Shown here: positions 4,601-61,831 of the stretch, piece by piece
Layout of the letters: every line of letters starts with the position of its first letter
Position numbering within the stretch: position 1 is the first letter of the stretch
Source of the DNA: Escherichia coli
GTDB lineage: Bacteria; Pseudomonadota; Gammaproteobacteria; Enterobacterales; Enterobacteriaceae
Strand: one strand, 5' to 3'
DNA: 64,000 nucleotides
NCBI RefSeq assembly: GCF_003019035.1
Contig: NZ_CP027448.1
Program-made: the position numbers and the translations under genes
The notes under the pieces: model-generated
What the model was told of the DNA's origin: nothing
What the model saw: only the letters and a program-made list of their open reading frames with translations
The model's database searches: none

Positions 4601-7422
4601 AATGGCCCCTTCAGTCGTTCCTTTTTACCATCAATCATTTTTTTCACAGCCTCTCCTGATGGCTCAGGTATTATCTTTTGACTTTCTCGCTCTTCATTAT
4701 ATTTATTATTCTGAGATAATGCTTCTGTTTTATGGTGATTCTGCAGTTCAGAATACTGTCCTCTTACAATATTTTCCTCGCCATGTATGCTGTTCTGAGT
4801 ATCACCTATATTCCCTTTATATTCTGTGACCATATTATCAACCTGATGTTTTACATCATTACGGATATTACTGTCCTGTGTTCTTTGATCAATAATGGCC
4901 TGATGCCCCTGATGGTCAGCAATAATATTCTGGCTGCCACCACCCGAAGGTACGCTCTCCATTCCTTTACCAATATCGCCACGGGATTCACGCCAGGCAT
5001 TATCAACACCAGGTTGTACCTGTTCTTGCACAAAAGACCATGCCATCGCCCGACGGCGTTCTGCAATCTCCGGTGAACTGGTGTTTGTCAGAATAGCTTC
5101 TGCATACTGCGGCGCGTGTTTCATCACATACTGTGCAAACTGTTGCGACAGGTCTTCACTCATCTGCCCACTCATGCTTTCAGTACGGGATGCCATTTCA
5201 GCATATTCATGGCTGCGGGTCATATTCGTCGTGTACTGGTCGTAACTCTGTTTCGCTGAGTTCAGGGCTGCAGACAACTGGTCCACGCGGGAATCGGCAT
5301 TATTGTCAGTATGGCTTCCGGATTCACTGACTTTGCGACTGGTAAAGTAATCGCTGGCCTCTTTAAAGTCCTTACTGGCTCTAGCGTCAATATCATGGCG
5401 AGCATCATGGGAAGCCCTGCTGCCACTACTGGCTTCATGTGAGTCCAGATCACTACCGTCAATACTGGCTCGCCCACCAACCTTAGCGCCAACATCAACA
5501 CGCACACCAAAAAGGCTGGGCTTTGCATCTAATCCGGCATGAGCATCACCATACAATCCAGCTGATGCAGTCGTACTTCTCGATGCCAGTTCTCTTGTCG
5601 CCTGCTCATTACTGATATTATGCGCCTTCGCATAGCTTTCCACTGCACTGCGCATACGGCTGGCCATCATGGAGTCCTGAGCACTCATCGTGCTGTCAGC
5701 ACCACCGGTGACAGAATCACTGCTCCCCCGGTTAGAACCAAACTGACTGAGCGTGTTCCAGGCACTGGCAATACTGCTGCTGAACCCATGCAGGGCACTT
5801 TCTGCTCTGTTCGATGCTTCCCGGGCCATTTCCTGTTGTGCCGCCGCAATCTGACGCGTTGCATTGATGCCGACCGGTAACCGGGACATCGCTCCGCTTG
5901 CATCCATCACCATATTACCATCACGGGTCTGTGTGGCGGTTGCGCCACTGCCGGTCTGGTACATCATCTGACCAAACGACGTGGTGCTGTTGGTGCTCCA
6001 GCTGAAGCCGTTCACGTTCTCCGTCTGCATGTTGCCGTAGGAGTAATTACCGTCAACCACACTGCCTGCTGCACTGGCGGTCGGGCTGATAGCAGAGGAA
6101 GCGAAATGGCTGTACACACTGGAAAATCCTGCCCCGAGCCCCCTGACCATCATCCAGGATAATGGCGGGATCATCATGGAAAGATACCCGGCAGTGGAAG
6201 CCAGATCGGAGTATTTCAGCTGTATCTGTGAAATTTCCGAGAGCACCACCGGTGCACCATTCTGCTTCGCATAAAATGTCATGGCGCTGTTCAGAATGGC
6301 GTACAACATTGGCCATGACTGCAACCACATCAGGGCAAACACATAGCCTTTCAGGACGGACAGCGTCAGTTTGTTGAAGACAGCCGCCAGTACCAGGAGC
6401 GGGAAAATACCGATGGCGATCCCCGTCAGGATGGTCTGCGTCATGGGCAGTGTCCGCATCGCCACATGACCGATGGAGACATGTGCCAGACGTTGCTTCT
6501 CCATCGATGATGTGGTGGCCAGATTCACCAGGCTGGCCGAATCACCATTACGTGCGGCATAACTGGTGATCCCCTCCTTCAGCGCATTGATGGTGACATT
6601 CTGGCGGATGATCTGGCTGGCTGATTTACTTGAGCCATAGAAGTAACTGTAACTGTCGCCAATCAGCGTACTGAACAACAGGTTCGGATCAGGGCGTCCA
6701 CCAAATAGCTGCTGGGCATAATAATGCCATGTTTTTCCGCCACTCTGTGTGTCCAGATTCAGCTTGTCTTTCAGCGAAACCGACGCGTCCTTACAGGTCA
6801 CGAAATTATTATTGCTGTCATAAACGCCCCGCAGCGGACTGGGGCGGGAAAAAATCAGCGTGTAAGGATCAGCGGAGGCCATCAGTTCCTCCAGCGTGTA
6901 TTTGTGGTTCAGGTAAATATCCCCCATCACGCAGTTCTGCACATAATCCTGGAAAAGATTGGCGATTTCCGGATTACGGGACAAAAAGTCGGTGCTTTTT
7001 GATACCAGTTCTGCGCCAAACAGCATCCCCGTTTTGCTGTAGGTGACACTGTCCGGTTGCGTGAAGATCATCTCGTAACTGGCCACCATTGCATGCCCGA
7101 TACGGGTCGTCAGTGAAAGTGGCATCGCCAGTCCGACCGGCACATTATCCACCCGGTGAATTTTGACCAGGTCACTGTTATCAATAATCTGCACCGATGT
7201 GCGGACATTAACCAGCAGGCTGATAAGCACAAACACGGCCACCCAGCCCAGCAAATCCATCACGTTGTGCCGCTGTACCCACATTACGGCCACCGCTAGA
7301 ACAGACAATGTGAGCGCAATTTTTTCAATGGAATCCCACGTCCGGGTCCCCATAAAGGCGGCAATGGCATTCAGGTTATTCCGCAACCACTCACCACCGG
7401 CAATCACATAAACTTCATTCAC
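4597..7422 (-). CDS. traG: Mating pair stabilisation / pilus assembly protein TraG
   Basis: 941-aa ORF with N-terminal polytopic membrane region; size and synteny match F TraG. Confidence 0.93.
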   Translation of the reverse strand: MNEVYVIAGGEWLRNNLNAIAAFMGTRTWDSIEKIALTLSVLAVAVMWVQRHNVMDLLGWVAVFVLISLLVNVRTSVQIIDNSDLVKIHRVDNVPVGLAMPLSLTTRIGHAMVASYEMIFTQPDSVTYSKTGMLFGAELVSKSTDFLSRNPEIANLFQDYVQNCVMGDIYLNHKYTLEELMASADPYTLIFSRPSPLRGVYDSNNNFVTCKDASVSLKDKLNLDTQSGGKTWHYYAQQLFGGRPDPNLLFSTLIGDSYSYFYGSSKSASQIIRQNVTINALKEGITSYAARNGDSASLVNLATTSSMEKQRLAHVSIGHVAMRTLPMTQTILTGIAIGIFPLLVLAAVFNKLTLSVLKGYVFALMWLQSWPMLYAILNSAMTFYAKQNGAPVVLSEISQIQLKYSDLASTAGYLSMMIPPLSWMMVRGLGAGFSSVYSHFASSAISPTASAAGSVVDGNYSYGNMQTENVNGFSWSTNSTTSFGQMMYQTGSGATATQTRDGNMVMDASGAMSRLPVGINATRQIAAAQQEMAREASNRAESALHGFSSSIASAWNTLSQFGSNRGSSDSVTGGADSTMSAQDSMMASRMRSAVESYAKAHNISNEQATRELASRSTTASAGLYGDAHAGLDAKPSLFGVRVDVGAKVGGRASIDGSDLDSHEASSGSRASHDARHDIDARASKDFKEASDYFTSRKVSESGSHTDNNADSRVDQLSAALNSAKQSYDQYTTNMTRSHEYAEMASRTESMSGQMSEDLSQQFAQYVMKHAPQYAEAILTNTSSPEIAERRRAMAWSFVQEQVQPGVDNAWRESRGDIGKGMESVPSGGGSQNIIADHQGHQAIIDQRTQDSNIRNDVKHQVDNMVTEYKGNIGDTQNSIHGEENIVRGQYSELQNHHKTEALSQNNKYNEERESQKIIPEPSGEAVKKMIDGKKERLKGPL

Positions 7423-24936: not shown

Positions 24937-25623
24937 TTATTTAACACCATAAAATTCACGAATTATACTTAATAGCGAATCTATTTCTCCTTTATATATA
25001 CATGACACTCTGAATAAATCAAAGTGTTCAAAAAACTCTTTTATTTTCCGTTTAACTGGTTTAATTCGATCCTCAGATGCTCTGTCTGTAATACCCAATT
25101 CTCTGGCAATTGTTGCGTGACCAACACCCAGCATATAAAAAGAGAAAACAACCAATGTTCCTGGAGAAAGATCATTCCATATCGTTAATTGACCAGAAGT
25201 ATTTGTATTACTTACACTCTGATTTAACGCAAAAAATGGATAATCAGGAAACGGATTAATTTGCCATAAAACAACAGATTCGTCATTATAAAAAGAAACA
25301 TTCTCCATCCTTATCTGATAGATTTCGCCATGAAAATTAAAACGACGACAAAATGCAGAGCCATGTCCAAGAGCCTGGCATTCCAGTTCAAGTGATGAAA
25401 GAAAAATTTCAACCTGCAGACGTATATAACTCTCTCCGGATAAAGGTTTATCTTCTCTGGAAAAGAGTTCAATAAAAGCCCCATTGGCATAAAGGATTTT
25501 CCGGTTTTTGTTACGGACACAAACCGGAACGGGAGAATTTCTGTAGATATTCTGAACGTTAAGGATGTATTTATTTACAGATTGACTGTTTAGTGGCCTT
25601 TCTCTACGATCCAGCGCACACAT
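24937..25623 (-). CDS. traJ: TraJ transfer activator (start set to MCALDRR..., 228 aa)
   Basis: ORF 24937-25701; ATG 25623 has GGAGG 5 nt upstream; position between traM and traY. Sequence is not the F allele as I recall it. Confidence 0.75.
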
Positions 25624-25692
25624 AGGAACCTCCAGTAAGGATTCTATGGACAGTCGATGCAGGGAGTTACAGCTCCCTGCATCGGCGATTTT
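25618..25692 (+). ncRNA. finP: FinP antisense RNA (candidate), complementary to traJ RBS/start
   Basis: Plus strand opposite traJ leader shows imperfect stem-loop (25622-25648) then perfect hairpin GATGCAGGGAG-TTAC-AGCTCCCTGCATC (25656-25683) followed by T-rich tract: terminator-like, as expected for FinP. Ends approximate. Confidence 0.55.
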
Positions 25693-25812
25693 CAGTTTCA
25701 ATTTTTAACGTGGTATTAACCACATAATTAATATACTAATTATCTGACGTATTGTCATCTTTTTGAATCATAAAAATTCTTATATTTGAACCAACTCAAA
25801 CTTCATTTTCAT

Positions 25813-28644: not shown

Positions 28645-28666
28645 CCTGCTTTCTCCTCTCTCTGGT

Positions 28667-29314
28667 TTTCAGCCCCCATCATCTTTTGAGTTTCGGGAGC
28701 CGCGGTTTTGACGTTTTGCGGGGACCTGCCTTTTGTTCCCTCCGGTATTCACCATCACCTTTTTGAGAACCTTCGCCGCAAGGGGCATCACTGCCACGGA
28801 CGGAAACGACTGTCCGGGGGCAGACCGCAAAAGTTTTTGCCTGCTTTTGAGCAAAAAGTTTTGCGGGATGTACATTTCACCCCTGGACTGGCGGAGACGG
28901 TTGTGGCTGTATCAGCCCCCGGCGACAGGGGCTTAAACAGGTGAATGGCACCGGACAGAACAACGGGCAGGGACCCGCCGCAACGACGTGAAGCGCGGTT
29001 TGCGAAACGGCGTTGCCCCTTACATCCCGGCGGCCTTTTGCCGGGATGCCGGGAGCGCAGGCCACGGCGCGACAGAGGCGGCGCGACCGGAACGGTCGCT
29101 GCAAGCCCGGGGTTTTCACGCATCGGACCGTAGCGACAGCCCGAAACCGCGCCAGCGGGTTCGGCGGAGACTGGCAGGTGCGCCAGCAGCTGCCTGTCGG
29201 AGTCGGGCCTGACGACCGGATGCCGCCAAGCAGCCGGGAGCCGAAGGTGCGCCCGGCAGATAGGACAACACTGCAGTAGTCAGAATCAGAGCAGAAAGAA
29301 AAAGAGAATAATCA
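28667..29314 (+). repeat. Structured ~0.63-kb leading-region repeat, copy 1 (Frpo/ssi-like candidate single-strand promoter)
   Basis: Near-identical to 34087-34720 and 37421-38033; contains hairpins (28825-28866; CATCCCGGC...GCCGGGATG); ends about 20 bp upstream of the DUF905 start. Confidence 0.75.
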
Positions 29315-29565
29315 CAGGGAAGGTGATGTGATTTCTGACAGGCCATAACCAGAGAAGGCGGGGGAAAAGAACGGGCGCCGCAGGCGCGCGTTCATCCCCG
29401 TTCCTGAAGGGAAACGACCTTCCTGAAGTCAGGTTGTTCATGCCCGTACAACATCAGCAAGGAGAAAGGGGCTACCGGCGAACCAGCAGCCCCTTTATAA
29501 AGGCGCTTCAGTAGTCAGACCAGCATCAGTCCTGAAAAGGCGGGCCTGCGCCCGCCTCCAGGTTG

Positions 29566-29724
29566 CTACTTACCGGATTCGTAAGCCATGAAAGCCGCCA
29601 CCTCCCTGTGTCCGTCTCTGTAACGAATCTCGCACAGCGATTTTCGTGTCAGATAAGTGAATATCAACAGTGTGAGACACACGATCAACACACACCAGAC
29701 AAGGGAACTTCGTGGTAGTTTCAT
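29566..29724 (-). CDS. hok: Hok-family toxin (52 aa), flmA/hok
   Basis: Reverse-complement translates [52 protein letters not shown], the Hok sequence as I recall it; below the 60-aa cutoff so absent from ORF track. Confidence 0.9.
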
Positions 29725-29782
29725 GGCCTTCTTCTCCTTGCGCAAAGCGCGGTAAGAGGCTATCCTGATGTGGACTAGACAT
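29570..29782 (-). CDS. mok: Mok (modulator of killing) overlapping reading frame
   Basis: 70-aa ORF overlapping hok in another frame, the known hok/mok arrangement. Confidence 0.65.
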
Positions 29783-29825
29783 AGGGATGCCTCGTGGTGG
29801 TTAATGAAAATTAACTTACTACGGG
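29758..29825 (+). ncRNA. sok: Sok antisense RNA (candidate)
   Basis: Plus strand opposite mok 5' end, contains hairpin GTTAAT-GAAA-ATTAAC; ends approximate. Confidence 0.45.
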
Positions 29826-30003
29826 GCTATCTTCTTTCTGCCACACAACACGGCAACAAACCACCTTCACGTCATGAGGCAGAAAGCCTCAAGCGCCGGG
29901 CACATCATAGCCCATATACCTGCACGCTGACCACACTCACTTTCCCTGAAAATAATCCGCTCATTCAGACCGTTCACGGGAAATCCGTGTGATTGTTGCC
30001 GCA

Positions 30004-30723
30004 TCACGCTGCCTCCCGGAGTTTGTTCGGCACCATCCACCGCTCCATCTCACGGACAGCGTGACCGGCCTCTCTTGCTGCAAGACTGGCTTCCGCAATA
30101 ACCTGCCAGAACGGCATATCCTGCCACTGCCAGCGTTCCATTCCGGCCAGTGACGGAAAACGCTCGCCCCACTGCCAGAACAGGGTTTCCAGGTCATGCT
30201 CTGCCACCCGGTCACTCCAGCGTGCATGCCAGCTTCCGACTGTTTCCGGCGAATGGAATGCCAGTTCGATTTCAGCCTGAGCGACCAGCGCCTGGTACGC
30301 ACGGGCTTTCTGCTCTGCCTCCCTCGCCTGCTGGCGGCTGTACTTCTGCATGACCAGCGCGGATTTATGGCGACTGCGTTCCCTGACACGAAACCGCACC
30401 GACGGGAACAAGCGCTCTGCTGCATCACCGGGAAGGGGAAGGAGGCAGACCTCGCCCTGTGTTTCAATCAGCACATCGATGGCATACAGCCACTGAAGAC
30501 GGTTGCCGTGCAGTTCTTCTGCGGTCAGGGACGGCATGAAAAATCGCAGGTCAGACAGCGATATCCTGCGGCTTCCGTTCAGACAGCGGAAAAACGCCCC
30601 CGCATACGGATATTCAGCCAGCGTGTTACCCTGATGGCGGCGTTTTTCGGTCTCCGCCACCGCCCGCCATACGGCCTGTTGCTCTGTGCTGAGGGGAACC
30701 AGTGCCTGTGAACGTGCGCTCAT
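30004..30723 (-). CDS. psiA: PsiA (plasmid SOS inhibition protein A)
   Basis: 239 aa; 4-nt overlap with psiB; synteny ssb..psiB-psiA. Confidence 0.88.
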
Positions 30724-33231: not shown

Positions 33232-34720
<1,489 letters not shown>

Positions 34721-34929
34721 GAAAAAGAAGAACAGTAGCAGTAGCAGTAGCAGGAACAACAACATCAGTAACAGACAAATGACAGGCATGAAGAAACAGA
34801 AGCCCCCATCAGAACGTCCGCGTAATGAAAGGGGCGGCGCGTGAGCGCGGCCCCTTTCAGCGCCACCGGCGCGCGGTCTTTTCCCGGCGCGGGCAGACGG
34901 GCATTTATCCTCCCGCCTGCCCGGCGTCT

Positions 34930-36953: not shown

Positions 36954-37184
36954 TCAGTTAAAAGCGCGTTTCAGTTCGAGTGTGCGGAGCACCTGCCCGA
37001 AGGCCGTGTTTTTCATGGCGGGGATGTGTACACCACGCCCCCGGTGAAAACTCCGGGCTATGTGTCGCCCGAAGGCTTTCAGCACGGGGTCAATTTCCGG
37101 CGCGGGGATGTCTTCGCGTCTGAAACGGGGATGACGGCGGGGCTTTACAGCCGCTGCGGAAGGTGAAACAATACTTACCGTCAT
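36954..37184 (-). CDS. Small basic hypothetical protein (76 aa)
   Basis: AAGGAG RBS 8 nt upstream of ATG 37184; first ORF downstream of repeat copy 3. Confidence 0.45.
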   Translation of the reverse strand: MTVSIVSPSAAAVKPRRHPRFRREDIPAPEIDPVLKAFGRHIARSFHRGRGVHIPAMKNTAFGQVLRTLELKRAFN

Positions 37185-37420
37185 AAATGAAACTCCTTAT
37201 GACTGTTGAATGGAACCGCAGAAACTGCTCGAACAGTTTTTGCGGTGTGGATTAAGCAGGTCCTCCCCGGCCTGCTTTTTTCATATCTGCGTCTGACGTT
37301 CTCCGGTGTTTTCCTCCTTCTGTTCCTGCGTTCTCATTACCTGCCAGCCGGATGACTGACAGAACAAATAAATGCGTATTGCCGGAGCCTGAAATAAATC
37401 CTGATTTTTAAAGAACATCA

Positions 37421-38033
37421 CCCGTTGAGTTTCGGGAGCCGCGGTTTTGACGTTTCGCGGGAACCTGCTGCTGTATTCCCTGTGGTATGAACTTCACCCG
37501 TTTGAGAACCTTCGCCGCAAGGGGCATCACTGCCACGGCCTGACGCACCTGTCCTGGGCAGAACGCAAAATTTTTTACCGGGTTTGGGGTAAAAAATTTT
37601 GTGGGCTGTTCATTTACCCTGGACAGTCAGTGCGGCAGGTTGTGGCTGTATCAGCCCCCGGCGACAGGGACTCATACGGGTGTGTGGCACCCGGCAGGCA
37701 ATGAGCAGGGACCCGCCGCAACGACGGAGAGCGCGTGCGCGAAACGGCGTTGCCCCTTACATCCCGGCGGCCTTTTGCCGGGATGCCAGGAGCGCAGGCC
37801 ACGGCGCGACAGAGGCGGCGCGACCGGAACGGTCGCTGCAAGCCAGGGGGTTTCACGCATCGGACCGTAGCGGCAGCCCGAAACCGCGCCAGCGGGTTCG
37901 GCGGAGACTGGCAGGTGCGCCAGCAGCTGCCTGTCGGAGTCGGGCCTGACGACCGGATGCCGCCAGGCAGCCGGGAGCCGAAGGTGCGCCCGGCAGACAG
38001 AACAACACTGCAGTAGTCAGAATCAGAGCAGCA
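37421..38033 (+). repeat. Structured leading-region repeat, copy 3 (Frpo/ssi-like), diverged 5' part
   Basis: 3' two-thirds nearly identical to copies 1 and 2; 5' part diverged but hairpin retained with compensatory changes (37563-37603). Confidence 0.75.
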
Positions 38034-38224
38034 GATAAAGGAACAACAACAACATCAGGAACAGTTCCACAACATAAGAAAGAAACACTCCTGAGTCAGA
38101 CACATCACAGACGGGAAGGGTAACGGGCGACGCGCCAGCGTGGCCCGCTTCCCTTCCGGCAGGCGTCAGCCTGCCAGGGGTTTTCGCGCGGGCTGACAGG
38201 CGGCCTCCACCGCCTGCCCCTGTA

Positions 38225-44453: not shown

Positions 44454-46682
44454 TTATCTGACTACAATATTGATATCGTTTTCCGCAACAATCAGCATCA
44501 CGGCAGGTAAACCCTCCACACGCATTTTCTGGTGTAATTTTTTGATTAAATTATCATCTTCATTACTGGCTTTTGCGGAAAAGCCTTGTGGATGGGAGTG
44601 CCATTCGCCAACATAATCGACAACACGAGCGGTCAACTGGTGAACCCGTTCTAATGCTTCTTGTTGTCCCGCTTCTCCCCGGACAAAGGAGGCTGGAGAG
44701 GATTTACTGTCGATAGGTTCAGGGAGCACGTCAACCAGAATAATCGTTTTGTTCTTAAAATCTGTTATGCCAACAATTGCACCTCCTGTTTCATTAGGCA
44801 GTGCCTGTAAGCGGGTGTGCTGCAATTTTTGCGCTAAGCCCTGGTCATATTTAACAACCCATTCGCCAGAAATTATAGATACCACGGAATAGAGTTCAAT
44901 TTCATGTGCATCCATCGCGCCTGATATTTCATCAGATACCCAGATACACAATCGAGCATTTCCTTTGAGTGCAGTCTGGCGAAGTTGGCGTGAGAGGATA
45001 CCGGCATGAACATGAATACATTCACTGGACATACGTACAGAAATATCCCGACATCCACCACCGACCCAACGATCGCCATAATTGTGCTGTAGGTGAGTAC
45101 TTCCCCACTCACTGCTCAAAATTGCCCGATAGTATTGCCCCTCAATTGCATCAATTCGGCATTGTCTGTCTACATCCTCCATTAACATCACGCTAGACTG
45201 ACCCGATGGAGTCAGAAACAGGCTAACTATTCTGGGTATATCATCTTTTAACACTAGAGTCCTCGGCACCTCAAAGGTGGTACTGACATCCACAACTAAG
45301 TCTGCCTCATTCATTGCCTTAGCAATATCATCATCGTCATCAAGAATACTTTTATGGATCGCCTGAGGGAGGGGCTCATGCGGATAAATAGATTTGGCAA
45401 TATGCTGAATAATATGGGGTTTTGAGACTCCAATATGACAATCAAACCCAATATGGCGAGACAAATTATGTGGAAGAAGCCGATCTGGATCAATAAAAGT
45501 CCATGTCCCCCACCCCATTCGAATCCAAATATCAGCCAATGTACTACCAAGAGCGCCAACTCCAGCTAAAATACCTCGAAAAGCTGCACTCTCTGAATCA
45601 ACAGCAGATATGTCTCTCGCATGTGTGGCCTTCATAGCCGAACGTATTTCAACTGGTAAAAGCGGTAATTGTCGCCACTTGGTACTAATTGATCCGCCAA
45701 GAAGCCGTACGCGATGCTGTACTCCTCGCTCATTTTTTGGCGCCAGCATATCTAGTGCAGTGGCAAGTTCACCGAGTGAACTTTGCACAACATAGCCCAT
45801 CACATCCGTACGTTCTGTTTCTCCGTTTCTTAGACGGGGGATCCAAAGCAGGATAAGTAAGCCTTCTCCTTTACCAGACGTTGGGCGGATACCATCACTT
45901 GGTATTGCTTCATAAACAGCGTCAGTTAGTGGTTTTAGGAGCTCACTTCCCCATTCATTAAGTTGTTCTTCTAATTTTCCCAGATTATCCGGGTATGTAG
46001 CCACCGTAGAAACATCGACAGGAGGAACAGCAATAGTTAATAAGCGAAATGGCTTAACGCTTGAGGTATCTTGTTCTGGTACAGCCCTTAAAATAATCGG
46101 TCGCCCCTCACTGACCATCTGGAGACTGAGCTTATTGTCAGTCGCGTGATGATAATCGGGGTAATTGGCTGGCAAAATGAGCTGATAGGGACTCAAATAA
46201 AAAAGTTGCTCAAGTGGCTGATCTTCTCGATGTAGATGCAGTTCGGCCGATTCTCTAAGCCACCAAAAAATGCGCTCAAGGAATCTCTCGGGGGTCCAAC
46301 TGCGCTCAACTGCGCTCCAGGAGGCCTCATATAGGCAAAGAATTCGTGGTGAGCCAGGTTCTCCAGCATGCTGGTGAGAAAGAACAGGGAAATCTTTCCG
46401 CAATGCATGAACCAAGATAGGTATGCTTGATTTGGGATTGACCTCAATAGCCAATCGTTCTTTACGACGAATACGGGCTTGATTACCAGAAGCCACAGTC
46501 CCATCAGCAGCATCAATGATTAGATATTCCGAGCGGTTATCATTTATTTCAGAAAATCGTAATTCTCTGACTGTGACGTAAGGATGATTCTCGCATGCTT
46601 TAAGCAGCGAAATCGTTTGTGGATAAAGGCTATCGCGCCCCGATGAATCGAGGCGCTCACCCAATTCGAAATATTCGATCAT
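44454..46682 (-). CDS. Multidomain E2-like / E1-like (ThiF) / JAB-JAMM peptidase fusion protein (742 aa)
   Basis: HQH..10 aa..C (E2-like), GILAGVGALGSTLADIW...IDPD (ThiF Rossmann), EWHSHPQGFSAKASNEDD (JAMM HxH..S..D) read directly from the translation; ATGA overlap with upstream MBL gene. Confidence 0.75.
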   Translation of the reverse strand: MIEYFELGERLDSSGRDSLYPQTISLLKACENHPYVTVRELRFSEINDNRSEYLIIDAADGTVASGNQARIRRKERLAIEVNPKSSIPILVHALRKDFPVLSHQHAGEPGSPRILCLYEASWSAVERSWTPERFLERIFWWLRESAELHLHREDQPLEQLFYLSPYQLILPANYPDYHHATDNKLSLQMVSEGRPIILRAVPEQDTSSVKPFRLLTIAVPPVDVSTVATYPDNLGKLEEQLNEWGSELLKPLTDAVYEAIPSDGIRPTSGKGEGLLILLWIPRLRNGETERTDVMGYVVQSSLGELATALDMLAPKNERGVQHRVRLLGGSISTKWRQLPLLPVEIRSAMKATHARDISAVDSESAAFRGILAGVGALGSTLADIWIRMGWGTWTFIDPDRLLPHNLSRHIGFDCHIGVSKPHIIQHIAKSIYPHEPLPQAIHKSILDDDDDIAKAMNEADLVVDVSTTFEVPRTLVLKDDIPRIVSLFLTPSGQSSVMLMEDVDRQCRIDAIEGQYYRAILSSEWGSTHLQHNYGDRWVGGGCRDISVRMSSECIHVHAGILSRQLRQTALKGNARLCIWVSDEISGAMDAHEIELYSVVSIISGEWVVKYDQGLAQKLQHTRLQALPNETGGAIVGITDFKNKTIILVDVLPEPIDSKSSPASFVRGEAGQQEALERVHQLTARVVDYVGEWHSHPQGFSAKASNEDDNLIKKLHQKMRVEGLPAVMLIVAENDINIVVR

Positions 46683-47866
46683 TGGTTTGATACACCTGCC
46701 CTAGGAGCGGCGGCCGTAGCAGCACTTACCGCAGCTGAAACAGCACCAACAATAGCGGGTATTAACTTCCCGTCTCCAGCCACTTCAAATTCAAGGAACG
46801 CTGTATCTTTAAGATCCCCCGTACAGCTAAACCAACCATCAACACTGTCCAGAATATCCTCATACTCACGCTTAGCCCGGATGCACGGTGGATCATAATC
46901 ATCATCAAGTATCTGATTGCTACTCGATACAATTGTTGCCCCGGAACGAGCCTGACCTAAAGCATTACGGGCCGCATCACAAACTTCAGCATTCTCCCCC
47001 CATTGTGACCAGCTATCATAGGAAAGTGAATGCCATGAACAATGATGCGGTGTGAGGAGAAGATCATATTCTAGTGCCTCAGCATTGCTTTTGTAACGAT
47101 CCCATAATCGCTCCCAGATGAGAACTTCTGCGTCTCCACCTAATAGAAAGTGCATAGGATTACGGGAATATGCAGAGGGCAGTATTTTCATGTTCATGAT
47201 GATACTGGATTCGTTTTTAGAAAGAGCTTCTTCCAAATATTCATCATCTTCATGTGGTGCGGGCGCCAGAAGCTGTGCGGAGAACACTTCTGAAATTTGC
47301 CCGTCAATTCTGGTGAATGTATCTCCAGCTTTGATAAGAATGGCACTCAGATCATCTGTTTTGCCATTAATATCTTCACCCATGATAAGGATTCGATTAC
47401 CGCTAGATGCATAACCATGTTCCCGCCAGTATTTTACTCGGCGCCGTGCTTCTGTATTAAATGCCTGAGCATCTTCGCAAAGTGTGTGACTTTTGGAACG
47501 ACGCCGAAAAATCAATGGTGATGACCACAATTCTCGAATAATGATACGCTTTTCTGAACGTTTCACATCGTCATCTGGATAATCTTCAGGACGGCCCAGC
47601 CAGAAATGTTTACGCAGGCCACCGCAATGATCCTGATCGGGATGACTGAGCATAAAAACATCAATAAAGGGACGATCTTTTTCATCATACTTCAATCTGC
47701 TACGTAATGCCGAGGCAACATCAGGTGTGTCATCATTGGGGTTATCAGCAGCAGAGCGAATATGTACATCAATCAGAATGGATGTGCCCCGGGTGTCGGC
47801 CAAACGTACCAGTGTCATATCACCGTTGCCGACTTGGAAAAAAGTAATTTTGGCTGCCATCGACAT
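46679..47866 (-). CDS. Metallo-beta-lactamase-fold protein (395 aa) with Ala/Gly-rich C-terminal tail
   Basis: MBL-like motifs ...LIDVH..., SHPDQDHCGG, ...TPHHCSWH...; C-terminus ...AIVGAVSAAVSAATAAAPRAGVSNQ. Confidence 0.75.
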   Translation of the reverse strand: MSMAAKITFFQVGNGDMTLVRLADTRGTSILIDVHIRSAADNPNDDTPDVASALRSRLKYDEKDRPFIDVFMLSHPDQDHCGGLRKHFWLGRPEDYPDDDVKRSEKRIIIRELWSSPLIFRRRSKSHTLCEDAQAFNTEARRRVKYWREHGYASSGNRILIMGEDINGKTDDLSAILIKAGDTFTRIDGQISEVFSAQLLAPAPHEDDEYLEEALSKNESSIIMNMKILPSAYSRNPMHFLLGGDAEVLIWERLWDRYKSNAEALEYDLLLTPHHCSWHSLSYDSWSQWGENAEVCDAARNALGQARSGATIVSSSNQILDDDYDPPCIRAKREYEDILDSVDGWFSCTGDLKDTAFLEFEVAGDGKLIPAIVGAVSAAVSAATAAAPRAGVSNQ

Positions 47867-47994: not shown

Positions 47995-48849
47995 ATGAGT
48001 GATAAAATGGTGAGAACTGGTCATTGGAGCCAAGAAAGACGGCTTGAATTCATCGATTTTCGCCTACTGTGGGAAGGTCGGCTTAACCGTGCAGATCTCA
48101 CGACATTTTTCAGAATTTCAGTTCCGCAAGCCTCATTAGATTTGGCAAAATATCAAGAAGTTGCGCCAAACAACATGGTGTATGATCGAACTCAGAAGGC
48201 TTACATTACGACTCCTGATTTCAAACCTGTTTTTACAAGCTTTGACAGTAATCATTACCTGAATGAACTACTTGGGCGAGAAAATGAAATAGTGGATCCT
48301 GATGATAGTTTCATTGGGTGGGTACCCCCGGTAGCCAGCCTTCCTCTCCCTGCCAGGAAAGTACAACCTGAAATATTGATTGATTTAATTCGAGCCATGC
48401 AAAGAAAACAGGCTTTGGTTGTTGATTATCGCTCAATGACTAATGAACCAGCAATTCGTACGCTATACCCAACAGCATTTGCACATGATGGGCATCGGTG
48501 GCATGTTCGTGCTTATTGTTTTAAGTCTACAATGTTTAAAGATTTTGTTCTTGGTAGGTTTTTTAAAATCGTTGAATTTGTTTCCCCACCGACATCAATT
48601 CCACAAGATGTGGACTGGAATACATTTATTGACGTGGTAATAGGTCCAAACCCTAACTACGATATGAATAAACGGCTATCTATTGAACATGATTATCAAA
48701 TGGTAAAAGGAGAAGCAAAAATCCACATACGTAAAGCGCAATTATATTATCTTAATCGTCGATTAAATTTGGATGTAAATAGCGATGGTTCAATAGATGA
48801 CAAACAGCAGATCATCATGCTCAGAATAGACGAGTCTAAAACCTATTAA
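47995..48849 (+). CDS. HTH-WYL domain transcriptional regulator (BrxR/CapW-like)
   Basis: 284 aa; central ...HDGHRWHVRAYCFKSTMFKDFVLGRFFKI... fits the WYL pattern; N-terminal HTH-like region. Confidence 0.7.
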   Translation: MSDKMVRTGHWSQERRLEFIDFRLLWEGRLNRADLTTFFRISVPQASLDLAKYQEVAPNNMVYDRTQKAYITTPDFKPVFTSFDSNHYLNELLGRENEIVDPDDSFIGWVPPVASLPLPARKVQPEILIDLIRAMQRKQALVVDYRSMTNEPAIRTLYPTAFAHDGHRWHVRAYCFKSTMFKDFVLGRFFKIVEFVSPPTSIPQDVDWNTFIDVVIGPNPNYDMNKRLSIEHDYQMVKGEAKIHIRKAQLYYLNRRLNLDVNSDGSIDDKQQIIMLRIDESKTY

Positions 48850-48861
48850 GGGAATATTTAT

Positions 48862-49380
48862 ATGAATGCGAATGATGTTAACAAACGGAATAAAGAATGG
48901 ATGATTGTAATCATTATTATCTATCTTTTTATTTTGTTATGTATAGCAACATACGCTATTGGGGCTATGTCTCTAGGTTGGTTACCAACACCTTACGCAC
49001 CATTAAGGGTGCCACTGATGTGCGGAGCAATTGCCTATATAGGTGGTTGTTTATATTGTTTTCGTGCAATTTACCTCAATAAATGTATTAGAAAACAATG
49101 GGATCCAGATTGGCATGTATGGTATTTCATTCGCCCACTGACCAGTACAATCGCAGGTGCTATCAGTTATTTATTCCTTAAGGCGGGGTTGTTAGTTTTG
49201 GAGTCTAGTTCCAATGTAGGAGCTAGTGAAATGGGTTTCTTTGCGCTGGCATTTATTGCTGGTTTTAACGTCGATAAATTTGTCGCAAAAATCGAGGAAG
49301 TTGCAAAGGCTGTCTGGGGTATTGAAAAAACTCGAAGCTCGACTAATAATGATGCGAAAAATTCGGAAAAAAAAGAATAG
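48862..49380 (+). CDS. Small membrane protein (about 4 predicted TM helices, 172 aa)
   Basis: Hydrophobic segments throughout; 12 bp downstream of the WYL gene. Confidence 0.55.
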   Translation: MNANDVNKRNKEWMIVIIIIYLFILLCIATYAIGAMSLGWLPTPYAPLRVPLMCGAIAYIGGCLYCFRAIYLNKCIRKQWDPDWHVWYFIRPLTSTIAGAISYLFLKAGLLVLESSSNVGASEMGFFALAFIAGFNVDKFVAKIEEVAKAVWGIEKTRSSTNNDAKNSEKKE

Positions 49381-53977: not shown

Positions 53978-54949
53978 TTACTCACTTGACTCAGGAAGTC
54001 TTTCCAGAATACGTTTTATTGCCTCATCTATCTCCGACTGTGCCTCAGCGGAAATGCGGGAAAACTCATAAACAACAAGTCGTTTCTTTGAATCAATTTT
54101 CTTTCTTGCAAATTGGTTGCGATCTGAAAATTCTCTCAGCTTCTCAGTTTGAACCGTGCGGGTCGGGCGAACTATCAGCGATTTGCTCTCAGCTCTGATA
54201 ACAGCCAGAATTTTGCTTTTATCAATTGCCGGATAATCTGGCATGGTCTTCAACCGATGCTGAACTTTTTCCATCAGTTCTGTTACTGATCTTTGCTTGT
54301 TGTTTGCTTCTTCAGCTAGTTTCAGTAAAAAATGATAATCCGGCAACGAAATATCATTTATCACAGGGAAAACTGCAACCATTTCATCTGGCACTGCTGC
54401 GGCCTGAAACGCACGAGTCACTTTCGCAGGAGAGAGATTTTCTGCCTGAGCAATCTCTTCCTTCGTCATACTGGTTCCATACGTAACTTCGAGTCGTTTT
54501 CCCAGCTCACGCAAGCTATGCTCACGTGCGGTTTGTATGTCTTTTGCCAGTTGTCGTGCATCTGACAGTTCAATATCGTCCTTTGTAACAAGTATTTCGA
54601 ATTTAACATTGCTATAAATGCAGGCTGCCCGGCGACGTGTGCCGTCCAGGATCTCAATTCGCCCGTTGACCTCTCTCCCAATAGCGGGGAAAAACTGCTG
54701 CAGTTTTATGGTACGGGAAATGTCACTGACTGACTCAGGGGATAACATTGCCTGGTCGCGACCATTAACAGATGAATCAACAAATGTCTTCGATTCGATC
54801 TCACCGCTTAGCACAACCGTTTTCACAAATTTGGCCTGTTTACCAGATTTGAGAGTAAAGGTTTTCACATCGCCATCGCTTTCAAGCATTCGCGCAAATT
54901 CTGAATTGCTGTTGCCAAGAACTCGGCCACGAGCTAAAACTTTCCTCAT
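53978..54949 (-). CDS. parB: ParB partition protein (P1/P7-type)
   Basis: 323 aa, ParB-like HTH region; 4-nt overlap with parA. Confidence 0.82.
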   Translation of the reverse strand: MRKVLARGRVLGNSNSEFARMLESDGDVKTFTLKSGKQAKFVKTVVLSGEIESKTFVDSSVNGRDQAMLSPESVSDISRTIKLQQFFPAIGREVNGRIEILDGTRRRAACIYSNVKFEILVTKDDIELSDARQLAKDIQTAREHSLRELGKRLEVTYGTSMTKEEIAQAENLSPAKVTRAFQAAAVPDEMVAVFPVINDISLPDYHFLLKLAEEANNKQRSVTELMEKVQHRLKTMPDYPAIDKSKILAVIRAESKSLIVRPTRTVQTEKLREFSDRNQFARKKIDSKKRLVVYEFSRISAEAQSEIDEAIKRILERLPESSE

Positions 54950-56151
54950 TTTGATGCTCCACGGATATATTCAATTCGATCAAAAACAGCCTTAGTAAAT
55001 CGTTCAGCTTCAGTTCGGGCTTTTTTCAGTGCTTCAACACTTCCAGGGTAGGAAACGGGGTTTGCACTAATAATGGTGTCAAACGACTCACCACACCGTT
55101 CGAATCCGTCAAGTCGCGGCAGTGACGCATCAAGAATGTTACTTGCGTACACTTCACGCGCCAGACTATGTGACGTCTCGTGGTCACGTTTGCCGGTCAT
55201 TTTTGACATAAACCCAATACTGGCGCTGAGCCTGGGTTCCACACCTTCTTCTTCAAGGCGTTCCAGCATCTCCGGTAAACGTGTCAGGTATTTCAACGTG
55301 GAGTGAAAATCAACCTGTGCCGGTGGAGTAGGGGTCAAGAGCAAATCGCTCGCGGCCAGTCCATTCAGGAGGAACGGATCAAGGTGAGGGCCTGTATCAA
55401 TAAAGACAAAATCATAATCACCTGCGATACGGTCAATAATTGTTTTTTTGAGCACCTCAGAAGGTTTCAGACCTGGTAAATGTTCTGTAACTAATGACTC
55501 CCACTGGCTGGCGACAAAGCCGTCGTCGATCGACGCAGGGATGATATCGACGCCTGGGATAATAGTTGGGCGAATTACAGCTTCTCTCAACGTTTCTGCA
55601 TCGAGATCATTCAGCATTGCCTGGGCTGCTGTTTCAAGAACAGTACCAATGCTATGAGTGTGATCAAGAAACATAGTACTGGATGCCTGCGGATCAAGGT
55701 CAATAACCAGGATGCGGAGATCATGACGAAGCAAGTCCGGATGTACTCGTAATGCATGTGCGAGAGTGACTGTCGTGACTGTTTTTGATACACCGCCTTT
55801 AAGATTGACGACAAAAATCACGTATGGTTCTTTGTGAATATCGCGGTACTTAGGTATTTGACGGTGGGCGTAAATGTCGATAACGTTCTGAATAGTGAGA
55901 GCGTATTGCTCTACGTTGCCAACCTGCTTTTTATTGAATTCGTAACCGCTGTCCTCCATCTCTTTTACAGCAAGTTCAACGATGCGACGGCTTAACTTAG
56001 GCAGTTTTGCCACAGCATTTCTGGTATATGTCTGATGATATTGAGTCAGATTAAATTCTTTTCTCTGAGCCTCAATATCCCTGCTCATAGCCTGAAGTAA
56101 GGCACTTGCTCTGAGAGCTATGGTGCCAACACTACCGTAATCACGTCTCAT
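54946..56151 (-). CDS. parA: ParA partition ATPase (type Ia, with N-terminal HTH extension)
   Basis: 401 aa; deviant Walker A VNLKGGVSKT. Confidence 0.9.
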   Translation of the reverse strand: MRRDYGSVGTIALRASALLQAMSRDIEAQRKEFNLTQYHQTYTRNAVAKLPKLSRRIVELAVKEMEDSGYEFNKKQVGNVEQYALTIQNVIDIYAHRQIPKYRDIHKEPYVIFVVNLKGGVSKTVTTVTLAHALRVHPDLLRHDLRILVIDLDPQASSTMFLDHTHSIGTVLETAAQAMLNDLDAETLREAVIRPTIIPGVDIIPASIDDGFVASQWESLVTEHLPGLKPSEVLKKTIIDRIAGDYDFVFIDTGPHLDPFLLNGLAASDLLLTPTPPAQVDFHSTLKYLTRLPEMLERLEEEGVEPRLSASIGFMSKMTGKRDHETSHSLAREVYASNILDASLPRLDGFERCGESFDTIISANPVSYPGSVEALKKARTEAERFTKAVFDRIEYIRGASK

Positions 56152-56744: not shown

Positions 56745-57503
56745 TTGTTGGATGGGCTTTTGCATGACAATATGGGCGAGTTAAAAACAACCCATACGAT
56801 AATGACAATGACAATAAGTACCGCGAAAAAATCAGTCAACATTAGTCAATCCAATGAACTGACAGAAGCAGCTTACTACTTGCCGTTGCAAGCCAAGAGG
56901 GTGCTATGGTTATGCCTTATTCAGTGCTATCCACTGAAAGATGATCCTGATTCGGTATCGCCAGTATTCACAGTTCTTGTTGCTGATTATCAAAAGTATT
57001 TCAAAGTGTCTGTTGATACAGCGTCATCTGATGTTAAAAAGGGCGTCACTGCACTGGCTGAAAGTAGTGTTGTGTTTTATCCCAAAGACGGAGAGTTTGA
57101 CGAGATCAAACGGCCCTGGCTGGCTGAGGCTGGGCTAAAAAAAGGGCGCGGAAAATGGCAAATTGAATTTAATTACAAAGTCATGCCCTATCTGATGGGA
57201 CTGACCAGCCAGTTCACCACGTATTCACTCTATGACTGCGGAAAAATAAACAGTGTTAGGGTCATTCGACTGTATGAAAGCCTGTGCCAGTACCGTTCCA
57301 GCGGAGTATGGGTTACTACTCAGGAATGGCTGTCAGAGCGATTCATGCTTCCTGAATCGCAAAGATCAAACTTCGCTGAAATGAAGAGAACGTTTATCAA
57401 TCCGGCACTGAAAAAGATAAACGCAAATACACCACTTAAAGCCGCAATGACACAGAATGAAGATGGCAGGTTAGTCTTCACCATTGTTGATTCGAAAAAC
57501 TAA
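56745..57503 (+). CDS. Iteron-binding replication initiator (RepFIB-like)
   Basis: 252-aa ORF flanked by iterons on both sides; true start may be upstream non-ATG. Confidence 0.7.
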   Translation: MLDGLLHDNMGELKTTHTIMTMTISTAKKSVNISQSNELTEAAYYLPLQAKRVLWLCLIQCYPLKDDPDSVSPVFTVLVADYQKYFKVSVDTASSDVKKGVTALAESSVVFYPKDGEFDEIKRPWLAEAGLKKGRGKWQIEFNYKVMPYLMGLTSQFTTYSLYDCGKINSVRVIRLYESLCQYRSSGVWVTTQEWLSERFMLPESQRSNFAEMKRTFINPALKKINANTPLKAAMTQNEDGRLVFTIVDSKN

Positions 57504-58996: not shown

Positions 58997-59522
<526 letters not shown>

Positions 59523-61831
59523 AATGCACCTCATCTTACATACTCTCTGTACATCATTAAGTATACACCAGTATTACGCTATAACATGCCTCCGGAAACG
59601 GAATATTGTTATCTGGCTATTATTAACACAATCATCAATAACTGACCTAAAAAGTGATCATGGAAATAATAACCGTCAATGTAGTAACCATGATAAATTA
59701 CAGGATGACTGTTTTTCTATGATCCGATTTTTATGGGATTCAGGATTTTCCGGAAGTGAATCAGGATCAGTGAATAAGCGAAGCGATCTTTTCTGCCGCT
59801 GATGACTGACTCGGGAACACGGGAAGAAACACAACATAGAGCGTCATGTCAGCGAAGCGTGACACCACATCCTGTAAAAGCGGACCAGCGGGCGGCAGCG
59901 AAGGATCTGCGGATCCGGAACTACCTTTTTTCGGATCTTATTAGTGTAGAAGAACGATTGTTGCGGTGAGGGGATTATTGCTTAGGAAGCAAAATTCAAA
60001 ACTGACTAAGCCAGAAATAGCAACAACAAGATAAGGAAATTTTCCCCCTCAGCCCCTGCATGCCGTGAGGGGGAGCAACTACCCAGCTACAGTTTTCATT
60101 TTATGATACGTCTTCACTAGGTAATACCTGTGAACTGACAGAGTCTTTATGGAGTGTATGGCGGACCTAAATTTGATCCCTGAAAACTGTCAGCGCTGCG
60201 AGGACGAAGAAAGTATTACGGCTAAAGCCGTAATACCTCCCCATCCAGCTTCAAGCTATGTAGAAACTTATGTGGGTAGAGCAGTCCCGACAGGGCAGTA
60301 CCGCATTGACAGGCCGTCAGGGCCGCTTACGAGCTTGTATGACAAGGGGGCCGTCTGGATATAGCGAATTATTGTACGGTAAGCCTTTTTTGAACACCTT
60401 ACCTATTGCTATAGAGGGAAACTCCTACGTTATACGCCGCTTTCAGGGGATTCGACCTTAATGAGACAACTCAAATATGATCGACAACTTAAACGCGATA
60501 GCTGCTGATAAAATCAATCCATTACGCGTTTCAATTGATTAAATAATGCACTTAATGTACAAAAATTTCCGATCTCAAAACTGAACCCTAAAGATACCAG
60601 GCATCTCCCCCAGGAAGCGCCCTCATGCGTTTTCCTGTTCCGCCTCTGCCACCTACCTTCTGTTTCATACTTGTTGTATTATTGTTTTTTGTTTTCAATC
60701 CCCAAGGAGACGTCGCTATATGACTGTGCGGGAGACAGAGGAAAACATTGAACAAATCTTCCCTGAGCTTTCGAACTTAATTGATATTATTAATAAATGG
60801 CTTTCCCATGGAAACATTGATCCCGAACTGGCACACTTCATCATTTATCTTCTTGATTACCTAACCACCACACACAAAAGCATATAAAAAATTTCCTTGC
60901 ACATCCATTTCTTTGCGAATATTATTATCCCCGCTGAATATGATTCAATATCGCACGCTACTCATCCATCCCTGGATAATGAGTACATAGGTTGAAGTTT
61001 CAACACCCCCACTACGGGGGTGTTTTTTTACCAATAAAAACAAATCACACCATCGCCATACCCTGTTTGCCAGACATTGATTGGTAAATATGCGTAACTC
61101 GCTATAATACAAAAAGAAAAATCAGAACCAGAAACTAGTTTCCAGATAAAAAACACCCTCCCGAAGGAGGGGACAGACACATTCATATTTCCCAAAACAG
61201 GAATTTTTATTTTTATGACGCATTAATGAAGTTACTTCATCTCCAGTAGATTAACTTCATTTAAAGTGGAGATCAATCATATTTATTACGACTCTAAACC
61301 ATTACAACAACCACAATAAGATATCACCTCAAATATAAAAGACAATTCTTACAAAAACATTCTGAAAACAAAAAAAATACAGATAAACACCAATAAAAAC
61401 AGAAAACTCCTACAAGATTAAAGATGGTAAAATAATATAGAACTGTTAGTCTAATGGAGAAGGCGCATCTAATTCAGAGCAATCTATTGCGAAGAATCAG
61501 AACAACAGTTATCCACAGATTCTGGGGATAACTGCAGAAAGAAGATGTGCAAGAAAAGTCAGCCCCCCGGGAAAGTATTCTTTCTGTTGGGAATCCAATC
61601 ACTATAGGATTCGCGAAGATGGTCAGTACCCGAGTAAAGTAGTTTACACTCTTACTGGCGCTGAACCGAAAAGGCAAAAAAGAAGTTCCAGGCCTGTATC
61701 TGACTAAAAGTGAAGACGCTAACTTCTGGCTATCGGTCCGCAAAACCGTGGTGTGGATGGTCTGACTGTTTTCCCATAAGGCAAACCAGCCTTTGAACAC
61801 ATAAAATATTTTTCTGGACTTTTATATAAAT

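Follow-up and report, generated by a model that had tools for sequence, protein, structure and literature searches.

An intact hok/mok/sok locus of the plasmid R1 type in the leading region of an Escherichia coli plasmid

The hok/sok (parB) system of plasmid R1 is the paradigm type I toxin-antitoxin system, and for it a model is established in which an inert, end-paired mRNA is trimmed and refolds, after which either Sok and RNase III dispose of it or the cell is killed (PMC9841398, PMC1635323). Faridani et al. (2006; PMC1635323) report hok mRNA in three lengths, 441, 398 and 361 nt, and a Sok RNA of 64 nt with an 11-nt single-stranded 5' tail, and they list the anti-Sok PNA-1 as TATGTCTAGTC. 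The numbered functional bases of the hok mRNA come from Le Rhun et al. (2022; PMC9841398): G4, C5 and T6 in tac are loss-of-function positions, the A70 G71 C72 box is named aSD, and G105 and A106 are Shine-Dalgarno mutations.

Several relatives of this system have been described. The flm system of F shares with the locus analysed here its architecture, its leading-region position, tac, fbi, the 3' hairpins and most of the coding sequence. Further plasmid hok-like systems are srnB and pnd, and the chromosomal hokA-E/gef loci of E. coli, which we liken to the present locus from their descriptions, have a toxin of the same Pfam family and the same type I logic. Here we compare with these systems a locus found in a stretch of 64,000 nucleotides of E. 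coli DNA (the window), in which a previous sequence-only reading had placed a hok/mok/sok killer locus at 29566-29825.

Identity, extent and reading frames of the locus

We consider it nearly certain from sequence comparison that the locus is an intact copy, base for base, of the type I toxin-antitoxin hok/mok/sok (parB) of plasmid R1. The closest known system is hok/sok (parB) of R1 (GenBank X05813 / NZ_KY749247), and alignment of positions 29400-30010 with R1 (NZ_KY749247, 57.3-58.0 kb) gave 611 identical bases out of 611, so that no difference between the two was found over this interval, within which promoter, leader, mok, hok, Sok, 3' UTR and terminator all lie. The neighbouring psiB and psiA genes are also shared with R1, and the host replicon alone differs. 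Furthermore, the Rfam model RF01794 matches 29898-29722 on the minus strand with 88.9 bits (gathering score 59; model positions 1-157), and a chance explanation was dismissed on the Pfam and Rfam scores, which are above their cutoffs, together with the identity to R1. No second copy of hok, mok or the locus was found by tblastn and blastn in the whole window. The features are collected in Table 1.

Table 1. Features of the hok/mok/sok locus, with their positions in the window
Feature	Position	Strand	Basis
Whole locus	~29933 to 29457	hok on -, Sok on +	
hok promoter	29904..29933	-	consensus scan
hok mRNA, +1 = G 29897	29457..29897	-	numbering match to PMC9841398
tac (translational activator), mRNA nt 1-7, GGCGCUU	29891..29897	-	fold, PMC9841398
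ucb / anti-SD box, mRNA nt ~67-75 (incl. A70 G71 C72)	29823..29831	-	folds
mok Shine-Dalgarno GAGG, mRNA nt 105-108	29790..29793	-	sequence
mok ORF, 70 aa, ATG start	29570..29782	-	ORF list, Pfam
hok Shine-Dalgarno GGAG, within mok	29734..29737	-	sequence
hok CDS, membrane toxin, 52 aa + stop	29566..29724	-	translation, Pfam, R1 identity
3' road-block stem-loop, mRNA nt 342-363	29535..29556	-	fold, homologues, PMC9841398
fbi (fold-back inhibition) AAGCGCC, mRNA nt 390-396	29502..29508	-	fold
Terminal hairpin AAAGGGGCUGCUGG-UUCG-CCGGUAGCCCCUUU then CUCCUU	29465..29496	-	fold
Putative Sok promoter	29738..29766	+	position of Sok 5' end 29773
Sok antisense RNA, 64 nt: 11-nt single-stranded 5' tail GACUAGACAUA + long hairpin	29773..29836	+	

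According to the Pfam matches, the reading frames, the R1 alignment and the folds, the sequence-only reading had both the nature of the locus and its location right. Its interval of 29566-29825 is nevertheless too short when set against the whole locus. Missing at the high-coordinate end are 11 nt of Sok, which ends at 29836, the mRNA leader of hok, which contains tac and reaches 29897, and the hok promoter up to 29933; at the other end the 3' UTR, in which fbi and the terminator lie, is lacking as far as 29457.

The same reading had assigned to 29566-29724 of the minus strand a 52-aa Hok that falls below a 60-aa cutoff and overlaps the mok frame, and all of this was borne out. The hok frame opens with an ATG at 29724-29722 and closes with a TAG ending at 29566, and its product is a Hok/Gef toxin that matches PF01848 (HOK_GEF) over residues 8-48 with 76.5 bits (cutoff 22; E 1.2e-21), a match which also answers in the affirmative whether the peptide belongs to the Hok family. 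From the earliest possible start, TTG 29745, the frame reaches 59 aa, and because this is under the 60-aa cutoff hok is absent from the ORF track. On the other hand, mok starts upstream of hok in another frame and spans nearly all of it (29782..29570 against 29724..29566), and its product matches PF17496 (DUF5431, Mok family) along its full length, residues 1-70, with 140 bits (cutoff 27; E 2.6e-41).

The hok mRNA, its two 3' hairpins and Sok

The hok promoter, whose region is the same as in R1, consists of a -35 hexamer TGGTCA (29933-29928) and a -10 hexamer TATGAT (29909-29904) with an 18-nt spacer, matches the consensus at 9 of 12 positions and ends, at its -10, 7 nt upstream of the mRNA +1 (29897). 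With +1 at this base, all of the numbered bases named by Le Rhun et al. (PMC9841398) fall on the right base: G4 C5 T6, A70 G71 C72, GAGG at 105-108, G345 (29553) and C358 (29540). Counted from there, the ends of the three isoforms, 441, 398 and 361 nt long, would fall near 29457, 29500 and 29537. The end of the 398-nt form falls just past AAGCGCC (29508-29502), and those of the other two fall at a hairpin each, the 361-nt end just past the hairpin 29556-29539 and the 441-nt end (29457) ~8 nt beyond the terminal hairpin 29496-29465.

The first of these hairpins, GGCGGGC-GCAG-GCCCGCC (29556-29539) followed by UUUU, folds with -24.6 kcal/mol (z -5.1), and four pairs of its stem carry compensatory changes among the homologues (helix 16). 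This hairpin is the road-block to the exonuclease at which the mature 361-nt mRNA ends, with fbi and the likely terminator downstream. The second has -25.1 kcal/mol (z -4.7), is paired in 99.3% of cells across the homologues with six one-sided changes (helix 17), and is likely to be the intrinsic terminator of the 441-nt primary transcript. Neither 3' hairpin was listed as a terminator by the consensus scan, because their T-runs are short, and their assignment comes from the folds together with published work.

Its 7-bp all-G/C stem followed by UUUU gives the road-block hairpin the look of a terminator, and the sequence-only reading had taken a hairpin at about 29537-29560 as one. The GC-rich hairpin is indeed present, but a reading in which 29539-29556 terminates hok transcription and the locus ends there is, in our view, quite improbable on several grounds. 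The fbi box, which pairs with the mRNA's 5' end and is invariant in all of the homologues, lies 31 nt downstream of the stem; the published primary transcripts have 398 and 441 nt, this hairpin being the end of the processed 361-nt form (PMC1635323); mutations of G345 and C358 abolish the truncated mRNA only (PMC9841398); a second, stronger hairpin with a U-rich tail follows at 29496-29465; and the T-run of four bases is under the criterion of the scan. The role that stands is therefore that of the road-block of the processed mRNA.

The 398-nt mRNA folds with -175.9 kcal/mol (z -8.25), and the 441-nt mRNA, with -201.0 kcal/mol, keeps this fold and adds the terminator hairpin. In the minimum free energy (MFE) structures of both forms tac, nt 1-7, pairs with fbi, nt 390-396, and in the full-length structure the mok Shine-Dalgarno (SD) is base-paired, being sequestered by the ucb box, and the hok Shine-Dalgarno is base-paired too. 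Imposing the published tac/ucb pairs (4-72, 5-71 and 6-70) raises the energy of the 398-nt form by 12.2 kcal/mol but that of the 361-nt form by only 0.2, and in the latter the constrained fold has tac and ucb paired and a stem between the mok SD and dcb appears. In the unconstrained MFE of the 361-nt form there is no tac/ucb stem, a metastable 5' hairpin standing in its place and the tac/ucb pairing being an isoenergetic alternative; the first 30-60 nt alone fold into the published metastable 5' hairpin. The predicted folds in this way reproduce, in silico only, the published 5'-3' end-pairing switch. What the analysis gives directly is the presence of the elements, their positions, their identity, the predicted end-pairing and the energetic switch.

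The conservation of this structure was followed in an alignment of 10 loci of 80-100% identity, from plasmids of E. coli, Klebsiella and Enterobacter and one plasmid of uncultured source. The full-length structure is paired in 92.3% of cells over the 10 loci, compared with 37-45% when the partners are slid, a control in which it is favoured as it was derived from the window sequence. Moreover, 13 pairs show compensatory changes over the 10 loci, a number reached by none of 500 shuffles. Neither tac nor fbi varies among the 10 homologues (helix 1), and the helix between them, although 100% paired, therefore carries no covariation information.

A candidate sok antisense hairpin on the plus strand had also been proposed, and it is supported by both the complementarity to PNA-1 and the folding of the sok region that had been suggested as a check. 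The complement of PNA-1, GACTAGACATA, is the plus strand at 29773-29783, and we place Sok at 29773-29836 because its 5' tail exactly complements PNA-1, taken together with the published length of 64 nt. The fold of this segment leaves the 5' tail free and closes the remainder into a long hairpin (-26.5 kcal/mol, z -6.7). Sok is complementary to hok mRNA nt 62-125, with which it forms a perfect 64-bp duplex covering ucb and both the SD and the AUG of mok, but not the hok start. As for its promoter, the distance to the Sok 5' end points to TTGCGC (29738-29743) as -35 and TATCCT (29761-29766) as -10, with a 17-nt spacer; the consensus scan did not pick up this candidate, which has 8 of 12 matches and lies below its threshold.

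Relatives and plasmid setting

An alternative to the R1 assignment is that the locus is the flm allele of F (flmA/flmB/flmC), which would have a different antisense specificity. It occupies the place that flm has in F, within the leading region and downstream of psiB/psiA, and outside the antisense region most of it is identical to F. However, the alignment with R1 hok/sok and F flm, proposed as a check by the earlier reading, identifies the R1 allele (611/611): the window is 100% identical to R1, F-type alleles reach ~94%, and the flm candidate was rejected on this basis. The differences from F, both indels and substitutions, concentrate in the Sok/FlmB hairpin and in the region of the mok start, where flm has deletions of 3 nt and 2 nt and clustered substitutions; in addition, flm has a 2-nt insertion before fbi, and Hok residue 38 is His in the window and Tyr in FlmA. 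The features of F flm, namely the FlmB/antisense-target sequence and FlmA Tyr38, were absent from the window in the alignment, and we give this alternative hardly any credence.

More distant than flm are plasmid hok homologues of ~80-83% identity, found in plasmids of E. coli, Klebsiella and Enterobacter and in pGA45. These have the same fold as the R1-type locus, with tac and fbi invariant, the SD/anti-SD pairing retained and the road-block and terminator hairpins kept through compensatory changes, whereas they diverge in coding sequence, in the hexamers of the Sok promoter and in the sequence of the antisense target.

The locus lies in the usual place of hok/sok in IncF plasmids, downstream of psiB-psiA in the leading region of a conjugative plasmid, as in R1 and F. 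In fact, psiA (30723-30004) and psiB (31157-30720) are directly upstream of hok on the same strand, the surrounding sequence has its matches in IncF tra and leading regions, and the fertility-inhibition antisense pair of FinP and the traJ 5' UTR was found by Rfam at 25617-25725 (94.5 and 110.9 bits). When a 601-base query was used, at least 5,000 plasmid records matched, at least 1,436 of them at 99% identity or more and mostly from Escherichia, Klebsiella, Salmonella and Shigella; among the best 5,000 records by score, 4,024 were predicted to be conjugative. For the remainder of the window, identity to the plasmid records that match best does not exceed 97.6%.

The window carries RepFIA, sopAB and ccdAB. 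By homology to CP055749 (99.6% identity), the ccdA/ccdB type II addiction module lies at ~58997-59522, a replication initiator gene at 56802-57503 and a ParA/ParB-type partition pair at 53978-56151. As both hok/sok and ccdAB are present, the number of independent post-segregational killing systems on the plasmid is at least two.

Three direct repeats of ~640 bp in the same orientation are also found in the window, at 28665-29305, 34088-34728 (96.4%) and 37416-38040 (87.7% to the first). The first lies just downstream of hok, and the first and second bracket a 5.4-kb segment running from ssb to psiB-psiA-hok/sok. The repeat body has 68-70% GC. When folded as single-stranded DNA, the initial 300 nt of copy 1 (plus strand, 28700-29000) form a long, imperfect hairpin whose apex is at 28825-28866; the 741-nt segment that was folded has, as a whole, a z of -14.6. 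By analogy with F, where the Frpo1/Frpo2 single-strand promoters flank flm (PMC9849209), the three repeats are probably ssDNA promoters of the Frpo1/Frpo2 type of IncF leading regions.

Several other elements were found in the window. Rfam detected two plasmid antisense RNAs, AS-pc01 at 37179-37280 (plus strand, 89.7 bits), just before the third Frpo-like repeat, and AS-traG at 6618-6703 (plus strand, 62.1 bits). UptR (RF02568), described as an E. coli small RNA, has a full-length, near-perfect match at 60933-61024 (plus strand, 122.5 bits), ~1.4 kb beyond ccdA in the plasmid backbone. A permissive Rfam search added matches at chance level only, such as an L25 leader (E 0.25) and an FGF1 IRES (E 0.82).

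Adjoining umuD and dinI-like genes on the plasmid, a gene at 44454-46682 (minus strand) encodes a 742-aa protein with Prok-E2_A, ThiF (E1) and Prok-JAB domains (Pfam; E1-E2 and JAB according to PADLOC), and it overlaps by 4 nt a gene at 46679-47866 (minus strand) for a 395-aa, MBL-like protein annotated as a metallohydrolase, for which there was no Pfam match and the PADLOC matches to LmuA/RTasMBL were weak. Two genes divergent from this pair, at 47995-48849 and 48862-49380 (both plus strand), include a regulator with a WYL domain, and the 172-aa protein beside it had no Pfam or PADLOC match. The E2-E1-JAB/MBL pair resembles a Cap2/Cap3-type module for ubiquitin-like conjugation; no CD-NTase gene was seen among its annotated neighbours.

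Annotation of the locus and its expected function

The system found here is already known, real but ordinary, and of little value as a discovery; the same locus is present without change in well above a thousand sequenced plasmids. Its practical value is in annotation. In RefSeq/PGAP Hok starts at an internal GTG (29691) and has 41 aa (WP_001372321.1; 29566-29691, minus strand), and the 52-aa form is found in one GenBank record. In record CP057706 a 62-aa "protein sok" CDS is annotated on the plus strand at 29804-29992, which is spurious, Sok being an RNA. The RF01794 model, named "sok antitoxin", matches the hok-sense strand at 29722-29898 (minus strand), that is, hok mRNA nt 1-176, with no match on the plus strand; since this minus-strand match stops at the hok AUG, the model represents the hok leader and not Sok, and an annotation made from Rfam only would give Sok a wrong strand and a wrong extent. 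Taken together, a toxin below 60 aa, the 41-aa calls, a spurious CDS and the strand of the Rfam match mean that automated tracks tend to misplace or miss every part of the locus.

As regards function, transcription, processing, RNase III cleavage and killing would be expected here from the literature and the identity to R1. All of the elements found agree with the R1 model, as do the predicted folds, and no feature of the sequence speaks against the R1 assignment. Following the R1 model, the promoter at 29933-29904 would give rise to a stable hok mRNA with its 5' end (tac) paired to its 3' end (fbi), a closed form in which ucb holds the mok SD, so that the mRNA would be neither translated nor bound by Sok. 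Slow 3'-exonucleolytic trimming, halted at the hairpin 29556-29539, would remove fbi, and the freed tac would then pair with ucb and open both the translation-initiation region of mok and the Sok target. In plasmid-bearing cells the short-lived Sok would bind through its 11-nt 5' tail and block the translation of mok, to which that of hok would be coupled, and the duplex of Sok and hok mRNA would be cut by RNase III. In plasmid-free cells Sok would decay first and the matured hok mRNA would be translated, the 52-aa Hok then damaging the inner membrane and causing cell death (post-segregational killing).

It could be argued that the locus is instead a decayed or silent hok relic that stabilises nothing, as the chromosomal hok homologues have been reported not to mediate post-segregational killing (bioRxiv 10.1101/2025.08.07.668861). 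This we hold to be extremely unlikely, since all of the regulatory elements and both ORFs are intact and the same as in the functional minimal R1 parB+ region, and the locus is not on a chromosome but on the backbone of a conjugative plasmid, with FinP, traJ and tra genes. The 100% identity to that functional region argues for an active R1-type system, which would mediate post-segregational killing and so stabilise the plasmid.

Finally, the position of the locus may matter beyond killing upon plasmid loss, through repeat-deletion killing, through expression of hok before Sok, or through both, a proposal that we put forward tentatively and think rather unlikely to hold. Killing upon deletion of a segment by recombination between repeats has been suggested for flm of F (PMC9849209), and by analogy hok/sok could kill cells whose plasmids lose the 5.4-kb segment in this manner. 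Furthermore, hok is co-oriented with the leading genes and the template for Sok is the complementary strand; with this arrangement, the incoming single strand could serve as the template for hok mRNA, through read-through from the upstream Frpo-like promoter, before any Sok is transcribed. If so, the predicted inert, end-paired form of the hok mRNA would cover the gap before Sok is made.
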